Below are positions 19,134-55,416 of a stretch of DNA of 64,000 nucleotides, in pieces. Both the position numbers and the translations under genes were made by a program. Below the pieces are notes generated by a model, which was not told the DNA's origin, did not search any database, and saw only the letters and a list, made by a program, of their open reading frames with translations. Positions within the stretch are counted from its first letter, which is position 1. Each line of letters begins with the position of its first letter. Source of the stretch: a virus; IMG/VR virus record IMGVR_UViG_3300008448_011250, positions 1 through 64,000 of that record. One strand, written 5' to 3'.

Positions 19134-19889
19134 ATGAGTAAAGTTACAACAAGATTAGGCAATCAAGACATCGTTAATTTAGCAAAACAACGTTTTGAAT
19201 CACAACAAAAAAGCAAATTACCAACAGTTATTGTGTCATTGCCAAGTGGCGGCAAAATTTATCCCGAATCACATCCTTTGCGAAGCGGAAAAATAGATAT
19301 GCGCTATTTAACGGCATATGATGAAGACATTCTAACCAATATTTCTTATATTAGAGAAGGAGTAATGTTTGAAAGATTGTTAGAAGCAATCATTATGACG
19401 GATGTTGATGTTGCAGACATTGCTGCAGTAGATAAAGATGGATTAATTATACACGCGCGCGTATTAGCATATGGTGCAGAATATCCAGTTGTAATAAAAG
19501 ATCCAAAAACTGAAAAGGAATTGCAACGAGTAGTTGATTTATCTGCCGTAAAATATTTGCCATTTGAATTAGAATCAGATGAAAATGGAGAATTTACTTA
19601 TGATGTAGCGGGACACGTCATTAAATTTTCTTATTTAGGTCGCGACACAAGCAAAATGTCTGTCTCAGAAACACTTAAACATATAATTTGCCAAGTAGAT
19701 GATTTGAGATCAGAAGAAGCAATTGATGAATTTGTACGTTATCATTTCTTAGCTCGAGATGCAAAAATATTCCGCAAATATTATGCAGATAATGCACCAG
19801 GCCTGGATTTAACATACGAATTCGAAGGTGAAACAGGAGGCACCTTCACTGCCGGGTTTCTTCTTGGAACAGACCTTTTTTGGTTTTAA
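19134..19889 (+). CDS. Tail assembly chaperone / baseplate hub assembly protein (gp26-like)
   Basis: LPSGGKIYP and MRYLTAYDEDILT motifs; lies between tube and tape measure. Confidence 0.7.
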   Translation: MSKVTTRLGNQDIVNLAKQRFESQQKSKLPTVIVSLPSGGKIYPESHPLRSGKIDMRYLTAYDEDILTNISYIREGVMFERLLEAIIMTDVDVADIAAVDKDGLIIHARVLAYGAEYPVVIKDPKTEKELQRVVDLSAVKYLPFELESDENGEFTYDVAGHVIKFSYLGRDTSKMSVSETLKHIICQVDDLRSEEAIDEFVRYHFLARDAKIFRKYYADNAPGLDLTYEFEGETGGTFTAGFLLGTDLFWF

Positions 19890-30995: not shown

Positions 30996-31775
30996 ATGGC
31001 ACTTAACTTAGATGCAATTAAGGCAAAACTTAATCAGTTAAACAAAGCTGATGACAAAAAACAAAATTTGTGGAAGCCCGAAGCTGGCAAAACAAGAATT
31101 CGAATTGTACCTTACGTACACAGAAAAGACAATCCATTTCTAGAATTGTATTTCCATTACGACATTGGTAAAAGATCAATGTTATCACCAATCACATTTG
31201 GTAATGCAGATCCAATCGTTGAATTTGCAGAAAAGCTAAAAAAGACTGGCGATAAAGATGAATGGCTAATGGGCCGTAAAATTGAGCCGAAAATGAGAAC
31301 TTATGTTCCTGTAATCATTCGCGGTAAAGAATCTGAAGGAGTTAAATTTTGGGGATTTGGAAAACAAATCTATACAGAATTGTTATCAATCATTTCAGAT
31401 CCAGATTATGGTGACATTACAGATTTGATGAATGGACGCGATATTGATGTTGAATTCACACCAGCAGAAGGCGGAGCATATCCTAAGACAGCAATTCGAG
31501 TTAAGCCTAATACACAGGCAGCAACTGAAGACAAAGAAATTGCTCAAAAAATTATGAATCAACCGCAAATTACCGATTTATTTCCAGAACCAACTTATGA
31601 CGAACTAGAAAAAGCATTAGCTGAATGGATGAATCCAGAAAATGCAGATTCAGATGTTGAAGAATCAGATGAAGAAGAAGAAACAGTAGCAACAGCTCCT
31701 GCAAAAGCAGCAAAGCCAGCAGCAACTAAACAAACAGATGTAGCATCTGCATTTGATGATCTATTCAATTCTTAA
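30996..31775 (+). CDS. Single-stranded DNA-binding protein (gp32-like)
   Basis: WKP..G...IRIVP, DPI.EF, GVKFWGFGK, DYGDITD...GRD, acidic tail ending AFDDLFNS. Confidence 0.85.
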   Translation: MALNLDAIKAKLNQLNKADDKKQNLWKPEAGKTRIRIVPYVHRKDNPFLELYFHYDIGKRSMLSPITFGNADPIVEFAEKLKKTGDKDEWLMGRKIEPKMRTYVPVIIRGKESEGVKFWGFGKQIYTELLSIISDPDYGDITDLMNGRDIDVEFTPAEGGAYPKTAIRVKPNTQAATEDKEIAQKIMNQPQITDLFPEPTYDELEKALAEWMNPENADSDVEESDEEEETVATAPAKAAKPAATKQTDVASAFDDLFNS

Positions 31776-37581: not shown

Positions 37582-38283
37582 ATGACAAAAGAACAAAGAA
37601 AAAATTTAGAATTAGTTAAATCTGGTTTTGCTAACGGTATTTCAACGCAACTAGCAACTAAACAAGCAATGTTCGGCCCAGATGCTGAATTAACTCAAGA
37701 AGAAAAACAAGCAATTATTGATGATGCTGCATTTTATTATGGAGAATTTCTTCGTGCATTAGGTGTAGCTTGGGAACAAGATCCTAATTCAGACAATACT
37801 CCACGCAGAGTTGCAAAGGCATACGTAAATGATTTATGGAAAGGTCGTTATGAGCCAATGTCTAATATTACTTCATTTCCAAGTGATGGTTATGATGGTA
37901 TTGTGTTTGAAGGCGGTATTCCATTAACATCAATGTGTAGTCATCACCACCAGACAATTGAAGGATTAGTTCATATTGCATATATTCCGGCAGAGAATGG
38001 TAATGTAGTAGGTTTAAGTAAATTGAATAGAGTTGTAGAACACTTTGGTAGAAGAGGTGCAATTCAAGAACAATTGACAGTAGCAATTCAACACGCAGTT
38101 GACGAACTAATTACTGACAATAAAGGAGTAGCAGTTATGATTGAAGCAACTCATAATTGTGTATCATGTAGAGGTGTTAAGCATCGTGGTGCTTCAATGA
38201 AGACAGCAAAATTATCTGGAGCATTCTTGGAAGATGGCAATGCGAGATCAGAATTTTATCAATTCGTAAAAGGTTATAATTAA
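37582..38283 (+). CDS. folE: GTP cyclohydrolase I
   Basis: TPRRVAKAY, SMCSHH, GLSKLNR, IQEQLT, HNCVSCRGV. Confidence 0.95.
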   Translation: MTKEQRKNLELVKSGFANGISTQLATKQAMFGPDAELTQEEKQAIIDDAAFYYGEFLRALGVAWEQDPNSDNTPRRVAKAYVNDLWKGRYEPMSNITSFPSDGYDGIVFEGGIPLTSMCSHHHQTIEGLVHIAYIPAENGNVVGLSKLNRVVEHFGRRGAIQEQLTVAIQHAVDELITDNKGVAVMIEATHNCVSCRGVKHRGASMKTAKLSGAFLEDGNARSEFYQFVKGYN

Positions 38284-38885
38284 TGGCTGATTGGGACGCA
38301 TTGAATGCAGAATTAGATACTGCATTAGATTCAATGACTCATGAAGATTGGTTACAATGGAAAAATATGTCTATTATAGATTGGGAATTACACCAAAAAC
38401 TTATGCAAAAGAAAAGTAAAATGAAAAAGTTTAAGTCAACAAAATTATTTGATGGTTATTCTGCTTGTTTTAGACAATGGCGAGCAGAAGATACGCATTG
38501 CAAATTCTTACATGGGTATGCAGTATCATTTCGAGTATGGTTCGAAGGTGATTTAGATCATCGCAATTGGGTATTTGATTTCGGAGGAATGAAACGTGCA
38601 AAAACGCAAATTGCAGGTATGTCTCCGAAAGATTACTTTGCGTGGCTATTAGATCACACTACGATTGTATCTGTCGATGATCCATACTTAAAGACATTCG
38701 AACAAATGCATGAAGATGGTATTATCCAATTGCGAATATTAGCAAACGTTGGTTGCGAAAAGTTTGCAGAACATTTATACAATGTAATCAATATATTCTT
38801 ATTACAAGAAACCGAAGGTAGAGTTAAGGCAACAAAAGTAGAAGTATATGAACACGAAAGAAATTCGGCAAGTTATGGAGAATAA
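38283..38885 (+). CDS. queD: 6-carboxytetrahydropterin synthase (core probably starts at 38421)
   Basis: HCKFLHGY, WVFDFG, LDHT, GCEKFAE, VEVYEH..NSA.Y. Confidence 0.88.
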   Translation: MADWDALNAELDTALDSMTHEDWLQWKNMSIIDWELHQKLMQKKSKMKKFKSTKLFDGYSACFRQWRAEDTHCKFLHGYAVSFRVWFEGDLDHRNWVFDFGGMKRAKTQIAGMSPKDYFAWLLDHTTIVSVDDPYLKTFEQMHEDGIIQLRILANVGCEKFAEHLYNVINIFLLQETEGRVKATKVEVYEHERNSASYGE

Positions 38886-38999: not shown

Positions 39000-39380
39000 A
39001 TGAAAAATAATGAAGAGATATATGTATCACTTTATGAGTATTTAGGTAAAGGTTCTGGTGGTACTAATATTGGTCGAGAAGTAACGGCAGAAGCTGTTAA
39101 ACAAGGCGTTGATATCAAATGGAGAACTCTACCTAAAGAAGCACAACGTCCGGAATATACTCAAGTACAAATATATCCAATATCATTTTTGGATTCATAT
39201 TTTGCTAATGATCCGACTGTAGGTAATGTTGAAATAGATCGAACTCCATTAGTACGTCGTTCCGAATTGCTTAAATTGCAGCAACGACTACAAGAACTTG
39301 AGGCTAAATTTGACGCCGTAATTAAAAAATTAGATGTACCAACAACCAAATTAGAAGATGACTATGACCTCCCATTCTAA
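39000..39380 (+). CDS. Hypothetical protein with acidic DDYDLPF tail
   Basis: ORF in the operon; coiled-coil segment followed by EDDYDLPF. Confidence 0.65.
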   Translation: MKNNEEIYVSLYEYLGKGSGGTNIGREVTAEAVKQGVDIKWRTLPKEAQRPEYTQVQIYPISFLDSYFANDPTVGNVEIDRTPLVRRSELLKLQQRLQELEAKFDAVIKKLDVPTTKLEDDYDLPF

Positions 39381-40146
39381 AAGAATTACAGATTACAACA
39401 AAACATTGCCCATAGTAGAATTGTATAGATGTGTACAATCAGAAGGCTCTCGCTTTGGCAGACCTACTATTGCAGTTAGAACTACGGGTTGCACTCATCG
39501 ATGCTATTTTGGCGAAGGTGGTTGGTGCGATTCTTGGTATACTAGTATTCACCCGGAGAAAGGCACATTTACTTTCAATGACATCATAAAGATATATGAC
39601 GAAAATCCGCATATCAAAGAAATGATGTTAACTGGAGGTTCTCCAACAATGCATCCAGCATTGGTAAATGAATTGACACACTTTGCACATGAAAGAGACA
39701 TTCTTATCACTATTGAAACTGAAGGCTCACATTTTATTGCTACTGATTATCCTATCGGCTTATTATCTATTAGCCCTAAGTTTAATAATAGTGTACCCGT
39801 TGTGGGCGTTGCTACGCCGCAGGGCACTATCACGGATTCAAAGATGGTATCCCAACATAACAAGTTTAGATTGAATTACACAGCAATCAATGAAATGATA
39901 TCATATCATACAGATTATCATTATAAGCCAGTATGGGATGGTACAGAAGAAAATTTGCGAGAAATTGAAGAAGCTCGCATATTCCTAGATATTCCAAAGG
40001 AAAAAACATACATTATGCCAGCAGGAGATACCAGAGAAGAATTAATTAAAATGTATCCCGTAGTATTTGAAATGTGTGCCGAACATGGATATAACATGAC
40101 AGGTAGAGACCATATTATTGCATATGATACTAAAAGAGGCGTGTAA
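39358..40146 (+). CDS. queE: 7-carboxy-7-deazaguanine synthase (radical SAM)
   Basis: VQSEG...G.P...VRTTGC..RC.......CDS, LTGG.P, IETEGS, SISPK, R.HI. Confidence 0.9.
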   Translation: MTMTSHSKRITDYNKTLPIVELYRCVQSEGSRFGRPTIAVRTTGCTHRCYFGEGGWCDSWYTSIHPEKGTFTFNDIIKIYDENPHIKEMMLTGGSPTMHPALVNELTHFAHERDILITIETEGSHFIATDYPIGLLSISPKFNNSVPVVGVATPQGTITDSKMVSQHNKFRLNYTAINEMISYHTDYHYKPVWDGTEENLREIEEARIFLDIPKEKTYIMPAGDTREELIKMYPVVFEMCAEHGYNMTGRDHIIAYDTKRGV

Positions 40147-40994: not shown

Positions 40995-41224
40995 TAGAAG
41001 CATTAGGGTGGGCTAGTACCGCATTGGTATTAGTAGGTTACATTTTAAATGCACGACAATTTACACGTTATGCAATGTATGCCTGGATCATTGGCGATAT
41101 TGGTTGGATTACATATGATTTTTTCATTGATAATTTCAGCCATTTGGTATTAAGCTTAGTTATTATTATTATAAATTTATACGGAATATGGAACTTATTA
41201 TCAGCAAAAAAGAAATCCAATTAA
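40991..41224 (+). CDS. Small membrane protein (about 3 TM helices)
   Basis: Three hydrophobic segments; GW....LVL.GY.LNA and NLYGIW. Confidence 0.7.
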   Translation: MIEALGWASTALVLVGYILNARQFTRYAMYAWIIGDIGWITYDFFIDNFSHLVLSLVIIIINLYGIWNLLSAKKKSN

Positions 41225-41694
41225 GAGTAAAACAATTGGCATTAGACATTGCAAATGACCATATAAATACAGGTAATGCATTGCCACCAGTAATGATTTG
41301 CATTTTGAACGGTGCGTACATGTTTTATACGGATTTGCTCCGTAATATGCCGGTAGATGTACAATCTGATTTTGTTAGAATGAAATCATATCAAGGTCAA
41401 GATAATTCCGGCGGGATTGAAATCCTTAAGGGTTTAGAAGTAGATCTTAAAGGTCGCAATGTTTATATTGTAGATGATATTTGTGATACGGGTACAACTA
41501 TATTAGAAGCATTGTTTATGGTTAATAGTCACTTGCCCGCTCAAGTTAAAGTTGTTACATTAACAAGAAGAGGTGGCGGTGTTGATTTAACAAATTTTTG
41601 TGGTTTTGTTTTAGGCGATGAATGGATTGCTGGCTATGGGCTTGACAACAACGGGGTAGGAAGAAATTTAGAGGATTTATACAAGGTTAATTAA
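41188..41694 (+). CDS. hpt: Hypoxanthine/guanine phosphoribosyltransferase
   Basis: ILNGAYMF..DL, KSY, VYIVDDICDTGTT PRPP motif, GYGLD. Confidence 0.9.
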   Translation: MELIISKKEIQLRVKQLALDIANDHINTGNALPPVMICILNGAYMFYTDLLRNMPVDVQSDFVRMKSYQGQDNSGGIEILKGLEVDLKGRNVYIVDDICDTGTTILEALFMVNSHLPAQVKVVTLTRRGGGVDLTNFCGFVLGDEWIAGYGLDNNGVGRNLEDLYKVN

Positions 41695-44210
41695 TGTTTC
41701 AAGGAATAGGTTACGACAAAAAAAATAACATCATGCACGTATGGGATGATGAATTAGGACACCAAAAGTTTTCTTTTCAACCATATGCATATTTGCCAGA
41801 TGATAATGGTGCACACGTTTCATTAGATGGAACGCGACTATCACAAGTCCCAGGCAATCACAAAGACAATAGAACTGCATATGAATCAGATCTAAACGAA
41901 GAAATGCGCACATTGATTGATTTATATTATGAATCAGATGAGCCGTCCAAAGGACATAGAGATTTCTTTTTTGATATTGAGTCAGAACGTGATGAAAATG
42001 GTTATTCAACACCGCAAGATGCACGTTTGCGAATTACATCCATTGCATATTATGATAAAGCAGCAAATGACCGCAAAGTATTGGTATTAGATGAAGAACA
42101 TCGAGTTACAACAAAAGGTTTTAAAGAAGCTGAATATGAAGTAGAGATATTTCGCACAGAAGCGGATATGTTGACTAGATTCATAAATATTTTTGCTGCA
42201 GCTAAACCTACCGTAATTACAGGTTGGAACATTGACAATTATGACGTTCCATATCTTGTTAATCGTATTAAAAAAGTATTAGGTGCACAAGCAGTTAAAA
42301 AGCTTTCTCCTGCAGGTATTGTAGATTGGAATAAGAATCGAGAAAGATACAAAATCTTTGGAGTATCTAGTTTAGATTACCTGACACTATATAAAAAGTT
42401 TACGTATACAGAATTACCAAATTATCGATTAGACACTGTAGCAAAAACAGAATTAGGTAAGGGTAAAGTTGAATATGAAGGAGACTTGAATCAATTGTTT
42501 GCAACTGATATTCGCAAATTTGTTGAATATAACATGGTTGACGTTAATTTGGTTTATGAGTTAGATGAAAAGACACAGTTATTGAATCTTGCTCGAACCA
42601 TATGTCATAAAGGCCATGTTCCATATGAAGATGTATATTATGCATCTAAATACCTGGATGGTGCTGCAATAGTTGATTTGAAACGCAATGGATTAGTTGC
42701 ACCTAACAAACAATTCCGATTTGTTGAAGAAGAAACGGAAGCTGATGCATTAGCAGGAGCATATGTAAAAGATCCGATACCCGGCTTATACAAATGGATA
42801 TATGACTTAGATTTAACGTCATTATATCCTAGCATCATCATGAGTTTAAATATTTCTCCAGAAACTAAAGTAGGAGTAATACAAAATTGGAATGAAGAAT
42901 GTTTATTGAAACCAGAAGCACAACAAGTCACATTTACCAATGGCACGTATGCTCAAAATGTTAAAACATGGCTACAAGACAATGCATATACCGTTGCAAG
43001 TAATGGTGCCGTTTATAGAACAGATATCCGGGGATTCTTACCAACGATTCTAGAAAAATGGTTTGATGAACGTGTTGAATATAAAGACAAACGCGATGAA
43101 TATGCAGTCGGAACGGAAGAATATAAGTTTTATGATGCATTGCAGTTAACACAAAAAGTATTGCTCAATTCATTTTATGGAGTATTAGGACTTAAGACAT
43201 TTCGATTCCACGATTTAGATAATGCAGGTGCTATCACAGCAACAGGTCAAAGTGTAATTAAGTTTTCCGCAAAAGTTATTAATAATCACTATGCAAAAGA
43301 AGTAGGACAAGACCATTTCATTAATGCAACCAATGGCAAAGCAGAATTTGCATTCTATACGGATACAGATTCAACCTTTGTTAGTTCATTGCCTTTAATT
43401 GCAAAACGATTTCCTGGATTTGATGAAACAGATGAAAAGTTTATGATTGAACAAACCAATGCAATTGCATCAGAAGTTCAACGTCTTGTAAATCAAATGT
43501 ATGACCGATATTCGGAAGTATTTCACAATACCAAAACGCATCGATTCCAAATTAAACAAGAATATGTTGCAAAATCAGGTTTATGGATTGCTAAGAAGCG
43601 ATATGCACAATGGGTTATATTCAAAGAGGGTAAACCTACGGATAAATTAGATATCAAAGGATTAGATGTTGTTAGATCTAGTTTCCCGGAAGATTTCAAA
43701 AAGATAATGAAAGAAACACTTTGGAATATTCTTAAGGAAAAGAATAAAACAGAAACAACCGATATGATTCACACGTTTAAATCTGGATTAAAGAATTCGC
43801 CAGTACTTAATGTGATGAAGAATTCCGGGGTAAAGGAAATATCAAAATATACCAAGAAAAGAAAACCATTTACAGGATATTTACTCGGAACACCAGCACA
43901 CGTTAAGTCAGCAATTAATTTCAATGATTTGTTAACGTCTAATGACATTCGAGACATTGAACCTATAACAGATGGCGAAAAGGTTAAATGGGCATACTTA
44001 TCAGATAATCCTTTTGGTTTTGACACAATGGCACTTCGAGGTTACCAAGATCCAAAAGTTATCGTGGACTTTGTAGAGCAATACATAGATCGCAATAAAA
44101 TCTTTGAAAAGGAATTGAAAAATAAACTGGATGATTTCTATGCAGCAATGAATTGGGGTGCATTCCCGGAAAATAATTCAGTTGCCAAGTTCTTTTCATT
44201 TGGAAAATAA
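41694..44210 (+). CDS. Family-B DNA polymerase
   Basis: Exonuclease FDIE, TGWN..YD.PY; polymerase DLTSLYPSII, K..LNSFYG, YTDTDS, KKRY. Confidence 0.96.
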   Translation: MFQGIGYDKKNNIMHVWDDELGHQKFSFQPYAYLPDDNGAHVSLDGTRLSQVPGNHKDNRTAYESDLNEEMRTLIDLYYESDEPSKGHRDFFFDIESERDENGYSTPQDARLRITSIAYYDKAANDRKVLVLDEEHRVTTKGFKEAEYEVEIFRTEADMLTRFINIFAAAKPTVITGWNIDNYDVPYLVNRIKKVLGAQAVKKLSPAGIVDWNKNRERYKIFGVSSLDYLTLYKKFTYTELPNYRLDTVAKTELGKGKVEYEGDLNQLFATDIRKFVEYNMVDVNLVYELDEKTQLLNLARTICHKGHVPYEDVYYASKYLDGAAIVDLKRNGLVAPNKQFRFVEEETEADALAGAYVKDPIPGLYKWIYDLDLTSLYPSIIMSLNISPETKVGVIQNWNEECLLKPEAQQVTFTNGTYAQNVKTWLQDNAYTVASNGAVYRTDIRGFLPTILEKWFDERVEYKDKRDEYAVGTEEYKFYDALQLTQKVLLNSFYGVLGLKTFRFHDLDNAGAITATGQSVIKFSAKVINNHYAKEVGQDHFINATNGKAEFAFYTDTDSTFVSSLPLIAKRFPGFDETDEKFMIEQTNAIASEVQRLVNQMYDRYSEVFHNTKTHRFQIKQEYVAKSGLWIAKKRYAQWVIFKEGKPTDKLDIKGLDVVRSSFPEDFKKIMKETLWNILKEKNKTETTDMIHTFKSGLKNSPVLNVMKNSGVKEISKYTKKRKPFTGYLLGTPAHVKSAINFNDLLTSNDIRDIEPITDGEKVKWAYLSDNPFGFDTMALRGYQDPKVIVDFVEQYIDRNKIFEKELKNKLDDFYAAMNWGAFPENNSVAKFFSFGK

Positions 44211-44233
44211 GAATTAATTCATTATATTATAGT

Positions 44234-44686
44234 ATGATTGGTTATAAAAGTATATGGTATGGTAAAGAAGTTGAAGGACGCTTTACGGATATCGAAACAT
44301 GTTTCATTGCAGACTTTACGCCATTAGTTTATGGTACGCAACGAATGAAACCTATGCCGCACATTTATATTTGTTCTCCGGCTACTGAACAATTGGTTAA
44401 TGACAGCAAAAGCAAAGATTTCAATTGGCAGAATGTTTTTAACATGATATCAGACACGCAATTTGTTTCAATTGAAGCAACACCTGGTATGTTAGAACAT
44501 ATTCCTCCGATGATTAGAATTCGAGCGCATATCTTATTAATGTTAGATTGCAAAGATGCTGGATTGTTAAAGCAAACGGATAGTATCAAAGTAGTTTATG
44601 GAGATTATAAATTGTATTGCACAACCGTTCATAATATGCAATCAGTAAACCCAGATGATTATAAATTCGACCGCCATGAAGTATAG
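44234..44686 (+). CDS. Hypothetical protein heading the putative DNA-modification operon
   Basis: WYGKEVEGR..D.ET.FI motif; own promoter at 44200; overlaps the next gene. Confidence 0.7.
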   Translation: MIGYKSIWYGKEVEGRFTDIETCFIADFTPLVYGTQRMKPMPHIYICSPATEQLVNDSKSKDFNWQNVFNMISDTQFVSIEATPGMLEHIPPMIRIRAHILLMLDCKDAGLLKQTDSIKVVYGDYKLYCTTVHNMQSVNPDDYKFDRHEV

Positions 44687-45017
44687 TGTAGTAGTAACAT
44701 TTAGCATCGAAGGATTTCATAATTGGCCTGATGCTAAAGATGTTTTTCCAGAAGTAGCATTCTTATCAGATAGACATCGTCATATGTTTGGATTTCGTTG
44801 TTATGCACACGTAACACACACTGATAGAGATGAAGAATTTATTCTAATGCAACGAAGATTGAAACAACAGTTGCGAACTAACTTCGGTGGTAACATATTA
44901 GAGTTTGGTTCAATGTCGTGTGAGATGATTGGAGAATGGATATTAGAAAACAATAAAAATCTTTACAAAGTAGAAGTTTGGGAAGATTGGGAAAATGGTG
45001 CAATCATTGAAAGATAG
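44676..45017 (+). CDS. QueD-paralog T-fold protein, DpdL-like (putative CDG decarboxylase)
   Basis: GFH.WP, LSDRHRHMF (LxxxHRHxF), DRD.EFI, SCEMI, V.ED.ENGA. Confidence 0.7.
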   Translation: MKYSVVVTFSIEGFHNWPDAKDVFPEVAFLSDRHRHMFGFRCYAHVTHTDRDEEFILMQRRLKQQLRTNFGGNILEFGSMSCEMIGEWILENNKNLYKVEVWEDWENGAIIER

Positions 45018-45018
45018 T

Positions 45019-46053
45019 ATGAAAATATTTTTAGTAGATTTAGAATCTGTTCCAACTCGTTATACTTGTGAATGGAAATGGCACGTGCCGCAATTGCTTA
45101 GAGATAATGGCTTCGATGTAGAAGTTATCGAAGGTGACTTAGATATTCCAGAAGCAGTAACACCAGGTGCCTTTTTGAATTTCGGTGGCACTAATATGTA
45201 TAAGGCTACACAAACACATCGTTTAGCAGAATTATTTACACGAGGTGATATTAAAGCAGGAGATCATATCATATTCACTGATGCTTGGCATCCAGGTATT
45301 ATCAATGTTAAGTACATGAGTGAACTCCTAAATATTCCTGTTGTAACGCACGGACTTTGGCACGCGGGTTCATATGACCCAAATGACTTTTTAGGTCGTC
45401 TCGTTGGAGATAAACCATGGATTCGTCACGCTGAACAAGCCTTTATTGGAGCATTTGACCATAATTGGTTAGCAACTGCAGCACATTTTAATTTAATGTG
45501 TAAAACATATGACATATTTCATAATCCAACTTTTGATAGAACGGGTTGGCCTATGGAATATACAAAAACGATGATTGCTCCTAAAATGTGGGCAAAGAAA
45601 GAAAATATCATTGTATTTCCGCATCGCATTGCACCAGAAAAGCGTTTAGATTTATTTCAGCGCTTAGCAAAGCATCCGGATTTGAAACATTATCAATTTT
45701 GCGTTGCAATGGAAATGAATTTAAGCAAAACAGAATATCATGAATTGCTTCAACGTGCAAGATTTGCAGTGTCGTTTGCAGATCAAGAAACTTTAGGCAT
45801 TTCTATGTATGAATCAGCTTGTGCTGGAGCTTGTCCTATAGTTCCAAATCGTTTATCATATACGGAAATGTATGATCCGATGTTTAAACGTGCTGATTCG
45901 GTAGCAGAGGCAGCAAAAGCAATACTAGAATATGAACAGCAAGAAATGTCCGAAGCAATTGGGCAATTAGTTGCAAAATTACATAATAACTTTTTTTCAG
46001 CAAAACAATTAATCAATTATTTAAAAGGATACGAAAAAGATGAGCGAAAATAA
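45019..46053 (+). CDS. GT-B fold glycosyltransferase in the DNA-modification operon
   Basis: FPHRIAPEK, QETLGISMYE, P.VPNRLSY.EM donor-binding region; N-terminal RYT.EW and WHAGSYDP.D. Confidence 0.8.
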   Translation: MKIFLVDLESVPTRYTCEWKWHVPQLLRDNGFDVEVIEGDLDIPEAVTPGAFLNFGGTNMYKATQTHRLAELFTRGDIKAGDHIIFTDAWHPGIINVKYMSELLNIPVVTHGLWHAGSYDPNDFLGRLVGDKPWIRHAEQAFIGAFDHNWLATAAHFNLMCKTYDIFHNPTFDRTGWPMEYTKTMIAPKMWAKKENIIVFPHRIAPEKRLDLFQRLAKHPDLKHYQFCVAMEMNLSKTEYHELLQRARFAVSFADQETLGISMYESACAGACPIVPNRLSYTEMYDPMFKRADSVAEAAKAILEYEQQEMSEAIGQLVAKLHNNFFSAKQLINYLKGYEKDERK

Positions 46054-47299
46054 AAGATTCATATACTTTCCATCATTGTCCGCAGGTTCCATGGTATCTG
46101 CTTTCAAAAAGGATATGAAATTTGAAGATGGTAACCCTGTCAAATTTTTTGATTCGAGATATCCGGCAGATTGGAGACATCCATATTTCCTAGTCACTGC
46201 AGGACATCATTACAAAAAAATAGACTTTAGAAAGCAAATGGGCTTAGAAGATGATGTATTAGTATTTGGAGATTCAGGAGGTTATCAGATTGCAACTGGA
46301 GCTTTGCCATATAGCAATGAATTACGTGAAAAGATATTTCATTGGTTAGAAGCAAATAGTGATGTTGCAGCAAATTTAGATATTCCACCTAAGACAAAGT
46401 ATAAGAATCAATTTGCTCTATGTGCTGATATTAGTTTTGATAACTTTGCTTGGTTTGAAAAACATCAATCAGGTAAGACAAAATTCTTGAACATGTTGCA
46501 AGGATCAAATTCCGAAGAGTATACATGGTGGTATCACAAATTTAAGCATTTTGATTTCCAAGGTTGGGCAATCGGAGGTCCGCAGAAGTTAGTAGACTTT
46601 ATGTTTGCGGTTTCATTGATGCTTAAGAATAGAGAGTTTGAAAATAAACGATTAGAATATGTCCATTTATTAGGTATTTCTAAAATATCAGATTTCTTCA
46701 TATTAGCAACCTTGCAAAAGTTAATGAATCAACATACAGGTAATAGAATTTATATTACAACGGATTCATCTTCTCCAGGTCAATATCCGGTATTCGGAAC
46801 ATACCTGCATTCAACGAATTACAAGTCACAATCATTTTCTGAATTGTATTTTCCTAAGAATGCAGAATACCGCAGAAAGACACATATTAAACAAGGTAAG
46901 ACGGGTGAAGTTCCAATTGATTTAACTCAACACGTTCCTTGTTCATTAGGTTGTCCGGCTTGTAAAGATTTTACCTATGATTTGCTAGGAGGTAAGACTC
47001 CAGAAGGATTAGATAGATATTCTCAAGAAGCTATGCCTAGAATGGTTGTTCACAATACGCATTTGTATGTACAAGCAGCAAATGAAATAAATCAATTAGT
47101 TGATAGTCACGTTGAATTGCTAGAAACGTTGATACCAAGAGACTTATATGATGTAATCCTTTCATTACACGAAATGTTTGCAGATCCAGATGGCGCACCG
47201 CAAGTATATGAAAAATACATCAAAACATATAAAAAATTCGGCGGAAGTAGTATTTCCACAACCGATGCAGAAAACTTTAATAAATTCTTTAAATTTTAA
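46040..47299 (+). CDS. dpdA: tRNA-guanine-transglycosylase-like DNA deazaguanine insertion enzyme (DpdA family)
   Basis: GDSGGYQ, LDIPP, WAIGG, HLLG, TDSSSP, Zn-site C..GCPAC...HN. Confidence 0.8.
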   Translation: MSENKRFIYFPSLSAGSMVSAFKKDMKFEDGNPVKFFDSRYPADWRHPYFLVTAGHHYKKIDFRKQMGLEDDVLVFGDSGGYQIATGALPYSNELREKIFHWLEANSDVAANLDIPPKTKYKNQFALCADISFDNFAWFEKHQSGKTKFLNMLQGSNSEEYTWWYHKFKHFDFQGWAIGGPQKLVDFMFAVSLMLKNREFENKRLEYVHLLGISKISDFFILATLQKLMNQHTGNRIYITTDSSSPGQYPVFGTYLHSTNYKSQSFSELYFPKNAEYRRKTHIKQGKTGEVPIDLTQHVPCSLGCPACKDFTYDLLGGKTPEGLDRYSQEAMPRMVVHNTHLYVQAANEINQLVDSHVELLETLIPRDLYDVILSLHEMFADPDGAPQVYEKYIKTYKKFGGSSISTTDAENFNKFFKF

Positions 47300-47311
47300 T
47301 CAGGATAAACA

Positions 47312-48022
47312 ATGGAAAAAAGCAAGTTACAATCATTTATTAATCGTTATTATTTAGCAGGAAATTGCGAAGCGGTTAAATTGAATCAAAACGAAGAAGG
47401 TGTTGGTTGTGAATTGATCGATATGGATCAAACAATTGTAGGTAAAATACAATGGAAAACAACACCATTCATGAAAGGCGAATTAGGTATCAATCATACC
47501 GGTGCCTTAAACAAAATGCTCGGAGCATTGGGTGAAAATATCAATATCAATGTAAAAGATGCAGCAGGTAAGAATTATGCAATGGAAATTGCTGAAGGTA
47601 GCACTAAGGCAACATTTATGTTGGCAGACACGACAGTTATTCCAGCAGTTCCTTCAATCAATGCAGAACCTGATTATGTTATTGAAATTCCTGTCAATGA
47701 AGAATTTATTAGCAAGTTCATTAAAGCCAAGAATGCATTACCTGATGCCAAAAACTTTGCAGTGCAAGTAAAAGATGGTGTTATTAAATTTATTATCAAT
47801 TACACAACAGTTAATGCAGATAACATTACATTCGAGGTAGGAAATACAACTGCTGCCGATATGGATCCGGTTTGTTTCTCTGCGGATAAATTGAAAGAAG
47901 TACTTGTAGCAAATCGTGGAGACTCTGGTCAATTGAAAGTATCTCCAGATGGATTATCTAGAATTAATTTTACGGGTTCTGATTTTGAATCAACTTATTG
48001 GTTAGTAATGTTACAAAACTAA
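47312..48022 (+). CDS. Sliding clamp (gp45/PCNA-like)
   Basis: About 236 aa with a two-domain beta/alpha pattern, LAD..VI linker, VS.DGL....F....S.Y.LV; near the clamp loader. Confidence 0.7.
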   Translation: MEKSKLQSFINRYYLAGNCEAVKLNQNEEGVGCELIDMDQTIVGKIQWKTTPFMKGELGINHTGALNKMLGALGENININVKDAAGKNYAMEIAEGSTKATFMLADTTVIPAVPSINAEPDYVIEIPVNEEFISKFIKAKNALPDAKNFAVQVKDGVIKFIINYTTVNADNITFEVGNTTAADMDPVCFSADKLKEVLVANRGDSGQLKVSPDGLSRINFTGSDFESTYWLVMLQN

Positions 48023-48030
48023 GGAGTCGA

Positions 48031-48459
48031 ATGCAAGTAAAAATAAAACGACTACATAAAGATGCAACGATCCCGGCATATTCAAAGCCGGGAGATGCAG
48101 GAATGGATTTAACGGCAACATCTGCAAGGAAAGATGATTATGGTAATGTTGTTTATGGAACAGGCCTGGCAATTGAAATACCGGAAGGTCACGTTGGATT
48201 GATTTTTCCTAGATCATCAAATAGCAAAACAGATCTATATCTAACAAATCATGTAGGTGTTATTGATTCTGGGTATCGAGGAGAAATTATGTTTAAGTTT
48301 CGCCCAATTGATGGATTACTTAATGCTAAAGTATATCAAATTGGTGATAGAATAGGACAATTAATGATATTACCATATCCTGCTGTTGAATTAATAGAGG
48401 CAGCAGAATTATCTTCATCAGAACGTGGAGATGGCGGATTTGGATCAACGGGTAAATAA
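48031..48459 (+). CDS. dut: Trimeric dUTPase
   Basis: AGMDL, PRSS, GVIDSGYRGE, RIGQL, RG.GGFGSTG; GGAG RBS before 48031. Confidence 0.95.
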   Translation: MQVKIKRLHKDATIPAYSKPGDAGMDLTATSARKDDYGNVVYGTGLAIEIPEGHVGLIFPRSSNSKTDLYLTNHVGVIDSGYRGEIMFKFRPIDGLLNAKVYQIGDRIGQLMILPYPAVELIEAAELSSSERGDGGFGSTGK

Positions 48460-48464
48460 AAAAT

Positions 48465-49391
48465 ATGTTTGGACAACAAGAAAATACACTTTGGGTTGAA
48501 TCATTTCGACCTGACACATTAGAAGGATATATAGGCAATGAGCATATTATCGAGAAAGTTAAAATTTTTATTGATAATGGCGATGTTCCGCATCTCTTAT
48601 TTTATGGATCGGCTGGAACAGGCAAAACGACGTTGGCGAAAATAATTGCCGGATCGGTAGATGCAGATTTAATGTATATTAATGCATCAGATGAAAACTC
48701 AGTAGATGCGGTTAGAGATAAGATTAAGCGTTATGCATCAACAGTAGGATTTCGCAGATGGAAAATTATCATCTTAGATGAGGCAGATTATTTAACACCT
48801 AATGCTCAAGCTGCTCTTCGTAACTTAATGGAGACATATAGCAAAACAACACGCTTTATTTTAACATGTAACTATGTTGAAAAGATTATTGATCCGATTC
48901 AATCACGTTGTCAGACATTTGCTATTACACCACCAAATAAAAAAGAAGTAGCACAACGTTTAGTTACAGTACTTGATGAAAAAGGCGTAAGCTATGACAT
49001 CAAAGATATTGCTGCAATTATCAATGCATCATATCCAGATATTCGTCGAGCAATCAATGCAGCACAAGCATCAGTAGTTAATGGCAAATTGCAATTGGAT
49101 AAAGCTTCTGCAATTCAAGCTAATTATATGACTGAAATACTTGAAATGCTCAAAAATGCAAAAGACAAAAAAGCAACATTCACAAAAATTCGTCAATGTA
49201 TTGCAGATAGCAAAGTTAGAGACTTTACTCCTTTGTATACATTTTTATATGACAATTTAGATGAATTTGCACATGGACATATTGCACCTTGCATTTTGAT
49301 TATAGCAGAATCGCAATTTAAAGATGCTAGTGTAGTAGATAAAGAAATTAACATAATGGCAATGTTTGTCAATTTATTAGGAGAAATATGA
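48465..49391 (+). CDS. Clamp loader ATPase subunit (RFC/gp44-like)
   Basis: LWVE.FRP, GSAGTGKTT, INASDE, LDEAD, AQAALR, SRC. Confidence 0.93.
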   Translation: MFGQQENTLWVESFRPDTLEGYIGNEHIIEKVKIFIDNGDVPHLLFYGSAGTGKTTLAKIIAGSVDADLMYINASDENSVDAVRDKIKRYASTVGFRRWKIIILDEADYLTPNAQAALRNLMETYSKTTRFILTCNYVEKIIDPIQSRCQTFAITPPNKKEVAQRLVTVLDEKGVSYDIKDIAAIINASYPDIRRAINAAQASVVNGKLQLDKASAIQANYMTEILEMLKNAKDKKATFTKIRQCIADSKVRDFTPLYTFLYDNLDEFAHGHIAPCILIIAESQFKDASVVDKEINIMAMFVNLLGEI

Positions 49392-49830: not shown

Positions 49831-50280
49831 ATGGCAGAAGAAAAAAAGGGTGCAACAATTTTTGATTTCATTAATGGCGTAACTGACAAGAAAAAAGAAT
49901 GGTCTAAATGGTCTGAAACGGATCAAAAGAAATTTACTCCATTTATTGTTAATCGTTGGTTGTCAATGCGTATGGAATTAACAGAAATTGTTAATGAGTT
50001 TCAAACCTATACAATTGGCTTATTGCGTCCACAAGAAACGTATAGATTATACTATGAATTTCTTCCTGCAACTAAAGGATTTGCAAAATACATAAAAGGC
50101 AAATCAGAAGATAAGTATGAAAAGGATTTAGTTGCACAAATTGCCGAACATTATCAAGTATCCAAATCAGAAGCTACTGACTATATCGATTTAATGGATA
50201 AGACTCAATGTGATAGAATTTTATCAATGTATGGTTATAGTGAAGGAGAAAAAAAGAAATTATTGAAAGGAATAAAATGA
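49831..50280 (+). CDS. Clamp loader small subunit (gp62-like)
   Basis: IFDFIN, F.PFIVNRWLSM, KYIK, IAEHYQVS..EA..Y. Confidence 0.75.
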   Translation: MAEEKKGATIFDFINGVTDKKKEWSKWSETDQKKFTPFIVNRWLSMRMELTEIVNEFQTYTIGLLRPQETYRLYYEFLPATKGFAKYIKGKSEDKYEKDLVAQIAEHYQVSKSEATDYIDLMDKTQCDRILSMYGYSEGEKKKLLKGIK

Positions 50281-52672: not shown

Positions 52673-54160
52673 ATGGAATTACCAAAGTTACAAAAGATTG
52701 ATCCTAACAAACCTAAGAAAAAGAAAATCTTATTGTTAGCAGATGATTTTCGCTTACCATCAGGTATCGGAACAATCAGTAAAGAAATTATTTTTAATAC
52801 AATTCATCACTATGATTGGGTTCAATTAGGTGCTGCACTAAATCATCCTGATGCTGGTAAAGCATATGATTTGTCCGAAGATGTTCGCAGAGAAACAGGA
52901 GTTGAAGATGCTTCAGTTAAATTAATTCCATATAATGGTTATGGTGATAGAAACATTTTGTTTGCATTGCTAAATCAAGAAAAGCCAGATGCAATCTTTC
53001 ACTTTACAGATCCTAGATATTGGACATGGTTGTATGCATTAGAACATGAAATTAAAACTACATATGCAACGCCAATTATTTATTATTCAATTTGGGATGA
53101 TTTACCATATCCAATGTGGAACGCCCCTTTTTATGCAAGTTGCGATTTAATCATAGGCATTAGTAAGCAATCCGATAATATCCATAGAGAAGTGCTTAAA
53201 CAGAACGGATTTAAGGTTGTAGATTATGATGAATCTGATGAACTTTGTGCCGAAGTTAGTTCAGATGAAATCATTACAGGTTTTGTTCCTCACGGATTAA
53301 ATCATAATACGTTTAAACCTTTAGACGCCAAAGATCCGGTGTTGGTTGATATGCACAAAAAAATCAAAACGGATAATGGAGTAGATTTTGTAGTATTTTG
53401 GAATAATCGAAATATTCGAAGAAAACAACCAGGAGATGTAATTTTAGCATTCAAAACATTCGTTGATGGATTGCCAGAAGCCAAACGTCAAACAGTTGCA
53501 TTATTAATGCATACTCAGATAGTAGACGATAATGGAACAGATTTACGTGCAGTATGGAAAGCAGTATGTCCTGATTATAAAGTATTATTTTCGGAGGCAA
53601 AACTAAACACGCCGGAATTGAATGCAATGTATAACGTAGCAGATGTTGTAGTTAATATTGGATCAAATGAAGGTTGGGGACTAAGTTCAACTGAGGCAAT
53701 TTTATCCGGAACGCCTATCATTAATAATGTTACTGGTGGATTACAAGATCAATGTGGCTTTGTAGACGAAAATGATGAATGGATACGTTTTAATGGTGAA
53801 TTTGCAACTAATCATGCTGGTAAGTATAAATTACATGGAGTTTGGGCTAAACCAGTATTTCCTAGTAATAGAAGCTTACAAGGATCTCCGCAAACACCTT
53901 ATATCTTTGATGATCGTGTTCGATTTGAAGATGTAGCCGATGCAATTGCATATTGGTATGACACACCAGAAACCCTTCGTTCAGAAATGGGACAATCAGG
54001 AAGAGAATGGGCGTTAAAAAATGGATTAACGGCACAACAAATGGGGCAGAAAATGATTTGGATGATTGATTATTTATTTGAATCAAAACAAGTAATTAGA
54101 AAGCGATACACATTAACACCAGTTACAGAAACAAAATACGAAAAAATAGGAATAGTATGA
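52673..54160 (+). CDS. Glycosyltransferase family 4 (GT-B)
   Basis: VPHG, NNRNIRRK, LN.MYN.ADV, EGWGLS..EA..SG.PII. Confidence 0.9.
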   Translation: MELPKLQKIDPNKPKKKKILLLADDFRLPSGIGTISKEIIFNTIHHYDWVQLGAALNHPDAGKAYDLSEDVRRETGVEDASVKLIPYNGYGDRNILFALLNQEKPDAIFHFTDPRYWTWLYALEHEIKTTYATPIIYYSIWDDLPYPMWNAPFYASCDLIIGISKQSDNIHREVLKQNGFKVVDYDESDELCAEVSSDEIITGFVPHGLNHNTFKPLDAKDPVLVDMHKKIKTDNGVDFVVFWNNRNIRRKQPGDVILAFKTFVDGLPEAKRQTVALLMHTQIVDDNGTDLRAVWKAVCPDYKVLFSEAKLNTPELNAMYNVADVVVNIGSNEGWGLSSTEAILSGTPIINNVTGGLQDQCGFVDENDEWIRFNGEFATNHAGKYKLHGVWAKPVFPSNRSLQGSPQTPYIFDDRVRFEDVADAIAYWYDTPETLRSEMGQSGREWALKNGLTAQQMGQKMIWMIDYLFESKQVIRKRYTLTPVTETKYEKIGIV

Positions 54161-55416
54161 GAACAGCGGTTATATCATCACCAGTAGCAACACAATCAGG
54201 TTACGGACACCACGCACGAGAAGTAATTAAACAATTTATAGATAAACGAGGCGAAGAGTGGGACATTAAATTACTTTCAATGCCATGGGGACATACTCCA
54301 TTTACATATCCTATTCCGTTTGATTGGCAAAGCAGATTTGTTCCGCTTCCATTAACAGCACAGCCAGACATCTGGGTTCAAATTACAGTACCAAATGAAT
54401 TTCAACCTATAGGTAAATACAATATTGGTGTAACAGCAGGAACTGAAGGAGACGTTTGTCCTGCAGAATGGATTGATAAGATCAATCAAATGCAAGTTAC
54501 TATAGTTCCTAGCGAATTTACTAAATCAGTATTCGAAACAACAGCAAAGAATGCTGGAAAGTCGATTACAACTAGTTTACAAGTAGTTCCAGAATATTTT
54601 GATGACAAAATATATGACAATAAAAATGTAACCGTTAAAGTTGCTGGATTAGATGATATTAAAGAATCTGCAGCATTTTTAAGTGTCGGACATTGGTTGC
54701 AAGGTCAATTGGGGGAAGATCGTAAAAACATCGGGGGACTAGTGCATTGTTTCTTCAATACATATAAAAACAAGAAAGATGCTCCTGCGTTGATACTAAA
54801 AACAAGCGGAGCAACATATTCGGTAACAGATCGAAAAGAAATTGAAAATAGAATCAATCAAGTTCGAGATTTATTTCCAAATGTAAAACTTCCTAGTATA
54901 TACTTATTACATGGTGATTTAACAAATGCAGAAATGAATGCATTATACAATCACACTAAAGTAAAAGCAATGATATCATTTACTAAATCTGAAGGATTCG
55001 GACGACCATTGTTAGAATTTGCTACAACAGGTAAGCCAATCATTGCCCCACATTACTCCGGGCCTGCAGACTTCTTAAAAAAAGATTTTATGTGTGCCCT
55101 GCCAGGAGCATTAACTCCAATTCATCCATCTGCGCAAAATGAATTTTTAATTGCAGACGCAAAATGGTTTACGATAGATTATGGGTATGCTGGGAAAATG
55201 ATGCAAGAAGTATTGAAAAATTATAAAACATTTAAAGATTTAGCAACTCGTCAAAGATACTTTGTAAATACTAATTTTACAGAAACTGCAGTAGCTAAAC
55301 GTTATGATGAAGTATTGCAAATCATTGATGATGGCGTAAATAAAATTCCGAAAGCAGTTGAATTAAAATTACCGCAGTTACAAAAAGTAGAATTACCTAA
55401 GCTTCAAAAGGTTTGA
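54157..55416 (+). CDS. Glycosyltransferase family 4 (GT-B)
   Basis: SGYG.HAR, DRKN, EGFGRPLLEF...GKPII...SG..DF. Confidence 0.9.
   Translation: MRTAVISSPVATQSGYGHHAREVIKQFIDKRGEEWDIKLLSMPWGHTPFTYPIPFDWQSRFVPLPLTAQPDIWVQITVPNEFQPIGKYNIGVTAGTEGDVCPAEWIDKINQMQVTIVPSEFTKSVFETTAKNAGKSITTSLQVVPEYFDDKIYDNKNVTVKVAGLDDIKESAAFLSVGHWLQGQLGEDRKNIGGLVHCFFNTYKNKKDAPALILKTSGATYSVTDRKEIENRINQVRDLFPNVKLPSIYLLHGDLTNAEMNALYNHTKVKAMISFTKSEGFGRPLLEFATTGKPIIAPHYSGPADFLKKDFMCALPGALTPIHPSAQNEFLIADAKWFTIDYGYAGKMMQEVLKNYKTFKDLATRQRYFVNTNFTETAVAKRYDEVLQIIDDGVNKIPKAVELKLPQLQKVELPKLQKV

Follow-up and report, generated by a model that had tools for sequence, protein, structure and literature searches.

Unrelated proteins of one phage may dock on the same sliding clamp through short peptides at their extreme C-termini. 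In T4 and RB69, the gp45 clamp accepts any of the hydrophobic-acidic C-termini of gp43, gp55, and gp33 interchangeably as a ligand, these C-termini are attached via divergent, unstructured linkers, and a co-crystal structure of the RB69 clamp with a peptide exists (PMC2988020, the Geiduschek review). The polymerase gp43 is the founding client; T4 gp43 ends in ..SLDFLFG and T4 gp55 in ..SLDFLYEAND, and no such tail was found at the C-terminus of the T4 alpha-glucosyltransferase. DNMT1 is a client of PCNA that carries a PIP (PCNA-interacting protein) box and couples maintenance methylation to the replication fork. Phage 7-deazaguanine modification is currently described as a post-replicative exchange carried out by free DpdA. 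A 2023 survey of the DpdA subfamilies does not contain the word "clamp" and calls all 7-deazaguanine modifications post-replicative; why G replacement stays at 0.1% with some DpdAs and approaches 100% with others is left open in the literature (PMC10516641). DpdA enzymes and the docking peptides of clamp clients are both well described, whereas their combination is not; no paper linking DpdA to a sliding clamp was found in full-text literature searches. The present analysis concerns the genes of a DpdA-like enzyme and a family B DNA polymerase (PolB) in the IMG/VR record IMGVR_UViG_3300008448_011250. The stretch analysed (the window) comprises the first 64 kb of this 86.6-kb contig, which comes from an uncultured phage with a GC content of ~34% and has an estimated completeness of 46% (CheckV); a near-identical cultured phage was not found by megablast. 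Comparisons of sequences and predicted structures make it fairly probable that this DpdA works as a client of the sliding clamp encoded by the phage, an arrangement that would couple the insertion of 7-deazaguanine to replicated phage DNA.

All features given below between 37582 and 50280 are located on the plus strand. PolB (41694..44210, 838 aa) is a polymerase of the T4/RB69 gp43 type (phrog_262, E 4e-184). Its C-terminus reads ...NNSVAKFFSFGK, with SVAKFFSFGK as the last residues, and the motif V-A-K-F-F-S-F (44181..44201), followed by G-K and the stop codon, occupies the position of the gp43 clamp-binding epitope. The DpdA-like protein (46040..47299, 419 aa), a predicted DNA transglycosylase with the fold of tRNA-guanine transglycosylases (TGTs), ends in AENFNKFFKF, and F-N-K-F-F-K-F forms its residues 413-419 (47276..47296). 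The shared C-terminal KFFxF, which had been noticed in the original prediction, is thus borne out by both translated ends, and so is the statement that the clamp gene begins 12 nt after dpdA. The stop codon of dpdA ends at 47299 and the clamp open reading frame (ORF) starts at 47312; the intervening 12-nt spacer (47300..47311, tcaggataaaca) includes an AGGA ribosome-binding site. The earlier description of the tails as PIP-box-like holds for the core hydrophobic-x-x-F-F, which is present in DpdA (FNKFF) and in PolB (VAKFF), but not for the canonical box Qxx[LIMV]xx[FY][FY], since Ala or Asn stands three residues upstream of the core and Gln is absent. On the other hand, the core hydrophobic-x-x-[FL]-F is common to the T4 gp43 and gp55 tails and both window tails. 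As in T4 and RB69, a short peptide at the extreme C-terminus, preceded by an unstructured divergent linker, is shared by unrelated proteins of one phage; the added client in the window would be a DNA base-exchange enzyme, and, unlike the acidic T4/RB69 epitopes, the window motif is Phe-rich and basic (KFFxF).

The motif is rare elsewhere in the phage. KFFxF occurs twice in the ~100 proteins of the contig (27,450 residues), namely at the extreme C-termini of PolB and DpdA, and FFxF occurs five times; by chance, ~0.07 proteins per proteome would be expected to have such ends. In a complete relative of 159.6 kb, the only coding-strand ORFs ending in FFxF encode PolB, DpdA, and one structural protein; the DNA pattern search behind this count is noisy in an AT-rich genome, and the reading frames were checked afterwards. 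A survey of 150 related loci with ~6,300 ORFs gave the C-terminal motif in 87 members of the PolB family and 94 members of the DpdA family; beyond these two families, it was seen only in short and mostly antisense ORFs. No extended DNA identity was found between the stretches encoding the PolB and DpdA tails, and the tails are therefore not the product of a recent duplication.

The anatomy and conservation of the DpdA tail also resemble those of a docking peptide. In the AlphaFold2 (AF2) model, the catalytic body ends near residue 401, the linker (residues 401-412; 47240..47275) has a predicted local distance difference test score (pLDDT) of ~50 that falls below 50 at residues 404-409, and a short helix is predicted at residues 410-416. 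The model thus suggests a linker followed by a peptide, the usual layout of a short linear motif, akin to the linker-plus-epitope design of T4 gp55 and gp33. The linker sequence varies among homologs, whereas FxxFFxF is kept in all but a few of 120 close DpdA homologs. A wider sample comprised 150 representatives of clusters at 50% identity (24-47% identity, 116 of them full-length), most of which end in variants such as NEFFxF, NxFF, DLF, or SLF. [FLM]F was present in the last eight residues of 72% of the full-length representatives, compared with 5.7% of other eight-residue windows in the same proteins, a 13-fold enrichment at the C-terminus, and the consensus of these tails is [IL]-[NDS]-x-[FL]-F-(x-F). 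In jumbo-phage contigs (L147-L153), a motif of the FNSLF type is found 30-40 residues from the C-terminus of DpdA and is followed by an acidic extension. The check proposed earlier, whether DpdA homologs conserve the tail, was thus passed by most of the close homologs and by most of the wider sample.

Moreover, the tails of PolB and DpdA encoded on one contig are alike. The respective DpdA and PolB tails are IETFFDF and IESFFEF in locus L125, KINNLFKF and KINSLFKF in L130, and KMDALF and KMDGLF in L144. Among cultured phages, the corresponding pairs are TLDELFE and SLDDLFE in ACP17, SLDDLFG and SLEDLFGW in Ps15, SLDSFFD and TLDDFFS in BUCT-ZZ01, and SFNSLFD and HFDSLFGW in PA5oct. In GC-richer phages, among them ACP17 and Ps15, the DpdA motif changes type along with that of PolB (FF becomes LF, and K/N flanks become D/E). 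When PolB partners were shuffled among 13 lineages with anchored motifs, P was ~0.001. An anchor-free test of 22 lineages gave a score of 477, compared with 353.5 +/- 20.2 for shuffled pairs (z = 6.1), and none of 100,000 shuffles scored as high. Since the lineages are related to one another, these figures reflect fewer independent motif switches, perhaps five to seven.

The position of the PolB tail and the order of the genes both point to the clamp as the partner. PolB aligns with RB69 gp43 (E 5e-75) up to window residue 819, which corresponds to residue 887 of 903 in RB69; therefore, the last 19 PolB residues correspond to the C-terminal tail of gp43. The protein encoded directly after dpdA (47312..48022, 236 aa) showed no Pfam match and a weak match to the NCBIfam family NF002222, "DNA polymerase sliding clamp" (E 4e-5). 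Its AF2 model has a mean pLDDT of 66 (above 85 in the C-terminal domain) and a repeated helix-and-strand pattern, and a Foldseek search with this model retrieved PCNA and T4 gp45 (3u61_F) with E ~1e-9, a probability of 1.0, and a template modeling score of 0.6. The protein is thus assigned as a two-domain clamp of the PCNA/gp45 fold, for which a trimeric ring is predicted. Sequence searches of the PDB with the clamp and with DpdA returned nothing useful. In 120 of 126 related loci, dpdA lies no more than 60 nt upstream of the clamp gene, and in some of them the two genes overlap by 4 nt; the adjacency is also found in 14 of the 20 loci in this set that are below 70% identity. The window also encodes a clamp loader, with a gp44-like AAA+ large subunit (48465..49391; phrog_168, E 5e-85) and a gp62-like small subunit (49831..50280; phrog_225, E 7e-21).

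The assignment of the 419-aa protein is based on its predicted fold, its conserved residues, and its neighbors. The AF2 model, built on an alignment of 57 sequences, has a pLDDT of 91.5, and its Foldseek matches include the archaeosine TGT 1j2b (arcTGT), bacterial TGT, and QTRT1 (probability 1.0, E ~1e-10; 3e-10 for arcTGT). The protein itself had no match in Pfam or PADLOC and a weak one to TIGR00432 (E 0.014), and PF01702 is carried by homologs at 72-80% identity. Across the 57 sequences, D78 (in DSGG), D114, D242, and H209 are invariant, and C301, C305, C308, and H338 are conserved as a C-x3-C-x2-C...H site; these residues would map to the catalytic Asp pair and the Zn site of TGTs. PUA and other tRNA-binding C-terminal domains are absent, and the protein finishes in helices and the tail. 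It is therefore classed with the DpdA enzymes, as a protein of the TGT fold with a predicted guanine transglycosylase activity on DNA. It shares 24% identity (E 5e-8) with gp123 of Acidovorax phage ACP17, which in turn is 34-36% identical to DpdA2 of Vibrio phage nt-1 over 250 residues; no direct tblastn match connects the window protein with nt-1, and the link runs only through ACP17 gp123. The window DpdA may thus be regarded as belonging to a sister clade of the DpdAs of large myoviruses. An assignment to DpdA3 was considered and rejected, as BLASTP against phiST CGPG_00065 gave an E value of 0.22 and the proteins differ in length (259 aa vs 419 aa). No Campylobacter phage was retrieved when phiST DpdA3 was used as a tblastn query.

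Genes for FolE, QueD, QueE, and DpdL were found within 9 kb in the neighborhood of dpdA, interleaved with replisome genes. They encode a FolE-like GTP cyclohydrolase I for the first step of the 7-deazaguanine pathway (37582..38283; phrog_2197, E 1e-60), a QueD-like 6-pyruvoyl-tetrahydropterin synthase (38283..38885; phrog_2389, E 1.5e-35), a QueE-like radical SAM enzyme (39358..40146), and a DpdL-like protein (44655..45017, 120 aa). The QueE-like assignment is partly inferred, based on a weak Radical_SAM Pfam match, and the gene placement agrees with that of QueE in the ACP17 and phiST clusters. The DpdL-like protein, a predicted decarboxylase of 7-carboxy-7-deazaguanine (CDG) with the QueD fold, is 39% identical to DpdL of phiST (CGPG_00067; E 2e-23) and carries the signature LxxxHRHxF described for this family (PMC10516641). 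QueC is encoded neither on the contig nor in three complete relatives. The presence of FolE, QueD, QueE, and DpdL in the absence of QueC identifies the locus as a QueC-less pathway with the TGT-fold protein as its DpdA; the product is probably 7-deazaguanine (dDG) and, because there is no QueC, the inserted base is probably 7-deazaguanine itself. The gene between those of DpdL and DpdA encodes a GT-B-like glycosyltransferase (44995..46053; weak Glycos_transf_1 match) that is conserved beside dpdA. It is 40% identical to ACP17 gp124 (E 2e-63), which implies that a DpdA-glycosyltransferase-DpdL module is common to the window phage and ACP17. The modification may consist of dDG itself or of a glycosylated form of it.

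Together, the conserved motif on a linker, the PolB tail resembling the gp43 epitope, the co-variation of the two tails, and the adjacency of dpdA and the clamp gene argue for the earlier proposal that DpdA rides the clamp, which is supported to this extent by sequence evidence. In the proposed mechanism, the gp44/62-like phage loader would put clamps on the primer-template junctions of replicating phage DNA. DpdA, through its flexible linker of ~12 residues and a peptide hydrophobic-x-x-[F/L]-F-(x-F) of the same kind as the docking peptide of PolB, would occupy a free hydrophobic pocket of a clamp, next to the polymerase or after the polymerase has moved on. The tethered enzyme would then be held on the newly made duplex, where G would be exchanged for the 7-deazaguanine base. 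Whereas the fold, the motif with its conservation, the co-variation with PolB, and the gene order are observed, the model proposes that DpdA binds the clamp, that it acts at the fork or close behind it, and that the density of modification and the sparing of host DNA may depend on this. PIP-box clients such as DNMT1 offer a parallel, as a DNA-modifying enzyme is held on a trimeric clamp via a short motif with a di-aromatic end, although they have the canonical Gln that is absent here and, in DNMT1, transfer a methyl group rather than exchange a base. The ParB-dependent phage thymidine dioxygenases are likewise hypermodification enzymes reported to need a DNA-loaded partner (PMC13229309); they differ from the window system in the partner, the modified base, and the enzyme family.

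Data from other phages bear on the second part of the original prediction, that the tether would give dense and phage-specific modification. Like the window protein, DpdA2 of nt-1 and VH7D and gp123 of ACP17 are TGT-derived DNA transglycosylases of large T4-type myoviruses that are encoded beside deazaguanine genes. However, nt-1 DpdA2 has no tail, whereas the window DpdA carries a polymerase-type tail and is encoded directly before the clamp gene. The nt-1 enzyme makes ~350 modifications per 10^6 nucleotides (PMC6884629), with ~0.1% of G modified, and it is active alone in E. coli. The DpdA of ACP17 has the motif, and expression of ACP17 dpdA and dpdL gave no dDG in E. coli (PMC10516641). DNA of the motif-bearing phage PA5oct resists five G-containing restriction enzymes. 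The literature data for nt-1, ACP17, and PA5oct are circumstantial and consistent with DpdA being a clamp client. On the other hand, the Cellulophaga phage phiST resembles the window phage in having a QueC-less set of FolE, QueD, and QueE together with DpdL, and hence the same predicted chemistry, and shows complete replacement of G by dDG. Its DpdA3 is unlike the window protein, with 259 aa, no BLAST similarity, and no tail, and it works in a phage with a T7-like replisome that lacks a clamp; a clamp is thus not required for dense modification. Thus, the contrast between tail-less nt-1 and motif-bearing PA5oct agrees with the predicted effect on density, and phiST speaks against the necessity of a tether; host DNA would be spared if the enzyme is confined by the clamp. 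A broader proposal, for which the chances are judged to be rather below even, is that clamp tethering represents a general, hitherto unrecognized design of phage DNA hypermodification, with a large clade of DpdAs being obligate clients in phages with T4-type replisomes and the tail setting trace versus near-complete replacement of G. If DpdAs of this clade were obligate clients, this would explain the failed reconstitution with ACP17 dpdA and dpdL in E. coli, which has neither the phage clamp nor its loader.

Several observations weigh against the clamp-client proposal. A tether is unnecessary for the full replacement of G, as seen for the tail-less DpdA3 of phiST in a phage without a clamp, and the motif is missing or degraded in some phages that do encode a clamp, including nt-1, pf16 (..TLDLMCA), and Peetri (basic tail). 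The clamp model is moderate, with a pLDDT below 50 in the N-terminal domain, and gp55, a possible third control within the same genome, has no homolog in these phages. The window DpdA ranks its own PolB only 12th of 22, because many PolBs of the same clade share KFFxF and the tails of this clade have the FFxF core in common; it is thus the deeper lineages, not all of them independent of one another, that give rise to the signal of co-variation. In addition, the motif resembles the bacterial beta-clamp motif QL[SD]LF, and the partner could in principle be the clamp of the host.

Other explanations of the tail differ mainly in the partner that they assign to it. It is unlikely, though the least so of the alternatives, that the tail docks on another replisome component common to PolB and DpdA, such as the gp32-like single-stranded DNA-binding protein (SSB), the clamp loader, or the helicase. 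Co-variation implies a common partner for both tails and does not tell which one, and the tip of the gp32-like SSB (..AFDDLFNS) is also hydrophobic-acidic, so several tail-mediated contacts may exist in this replisome. However, the PolB tail is located at the epitope position of gp43, whose experimentally shown ligand is gp45, and dpdA is joined to the clamp gene, rather than to the SSB or loader genes, in the 120 loci mentioned above. Binding to the host beta clamp (DnaN), which would bring DpdA to host-type replication or repair sites, has an even smaller probability. QL[SD]LF is the beta-clamp-binding motif of bacteria, and the consensus [IL]-[NDS]-x-[FL]-F resembles it, especially in variants such as SLDDLF. 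Nevertheless, these phages encode their own clamp and loader beside dpdA, and the DpdA tail follows the phage PolB tail across very different hosts, from Synechococcus to Pseudomonas, which fits a partner encoded by the phage.

Two further explanations dispense with a docking role. The tail might be an element of oligomerization, autoinhibition, or stability, whose likeness to PolB arises by coincidence or from AT-rich compositional bias; Phe codons (TTY) are frequent at 34% GC, and within the window clade the likeness amounts to four of eight identical residues. This appears very unlikely given the strong C-terminal enrichment of the motif, the lack of KFFxF elsewhere in the proteome, and the fact that the motif type switches together with PolB in the GC-richer ACP17 and Ps15. 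Least probable of all, and only remotely so, is that the substrate of this transglycosylase is tRNA and that its link with replication genes reflects gene order only. Its best structural matches are tRNA TGTs, but the tRNA-binding C-terminal domains, including PUA, are missing, DpdL is encoded alongside it in a pathway without QueC, as is the case in phiST, a phage with dDG in its DNA, and DNA is the substrate of every phage TGT paralog tested to date (PMC10516641). Moreover, a tail of the polymerase type would be of use only to an enzyme working on DNA. The epitope homology, the adjacency, the enrichment at the C-terminus, and the co-variation across hosts are accounted for better by a DpdA docked on the phage clamp than by any of the four alternatives.

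If DpdA is indeed a clamp client, this would provide a physical mechanism that confines modification to replicating phage DNA and a testable cause of the differences in efficiency between DpdAs. The proteins known to operate from a viral sliding clamp would then include an enzyme that exchanges bases in DNA, and co-expression of the clamp and its loader could be a practical remedy for failed heterologous reconstitutions. Four cultured phages with this feature (ACP17, Ps15, BUCT-ZZ01, and PA5oct) make the proposal testable at the bench now.

The remaining genes in this part of the window include that for a 150-aa protein (44234..44686) with no family match and no similarity to phiST CGPG_00066, and that for a dUTPase (47998..48459; Pfam dUTPase, E 2e-20). 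A purine phosphoribosyltransferase gene (41188..41694; Pfam Pribosyltran, E 2e-19) is located directly upstream of PolB and ends exactly at its start; phiST also encodes a phosphoribosyltransferase. This enzyme could salvage the guanine freed by base exchange or activate the deazapurine base. Farther downstream of the replication genes, two adjoining GT-B glycosyltransferases (52673-55416; phrog_2170) open a long block of sugar-tailoring genes.

Unlike T4, phages of the window type appear to have no gp55 homolog. Neither T4 gp55 nor phrog_234 matched any of five relatives (three of them complete genomes), and no late sigma factor or gp33 was found in PHROG scans of the rest of the contig. The three complete relatives (G001, G002, and G003; 158-173 kb) have a T4-type gp43/44/62/45 replisome and no detectable gp55 late sigma factor (phrog_234), and their late transcription is probably not T4-like. 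In PA5oct, gp170 (L200:1235-1981, 248 aa), which is annotated as a "structural protein", is encoded between the C-terminal part of PolB and the DpdA-like gp168; its position and size suggest that it is probably the sliding clamp of this phage.

Unusual C-termini were also observed in several other proteins. The gp32-like SSB of the window (30996-31775; phrog_1192, E 5e-20) ends in ..SAFDDLFNS, which fits the hydrophobic-x-x-L-F core of the client tails of ACP17 and T4, and its tip may be a further docking peptide in this replisome. A 251-aa protein from the tail/baseplate region (19134-19889) ends in ..GTDLFWF and its homolog in G001 in ..GADFFWF; no other genuine ORF apart from those of PolB and DpdA has a C-terminus resembling FFxF, and here it probably forms part of the protein structure, as a strand, and does not serve for docking. 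The DpdA-like homolog of Pseudomonas phage Peetri (Peetri_00102; L201:2046-3416, 21% identity) has no polymerase-type motif; its last ~45 residues form a tail with many Lys, Arg, and Ser residues that might provide another means of staying on DNA. In the Synechococcus phage BUCT-ZZ01 (ON615601.1), a 447-aa GT-B-like glycosyltransferase encoded directly upstream of dpdA (L193:165-1505), which is not homologous to the window glycosyltransferase, ends in ..GSLEDFFND, the same type of tail as in PolB and DpdA of that phage, implying that a second putative DNA-modifying enzyme may be a clamp client.

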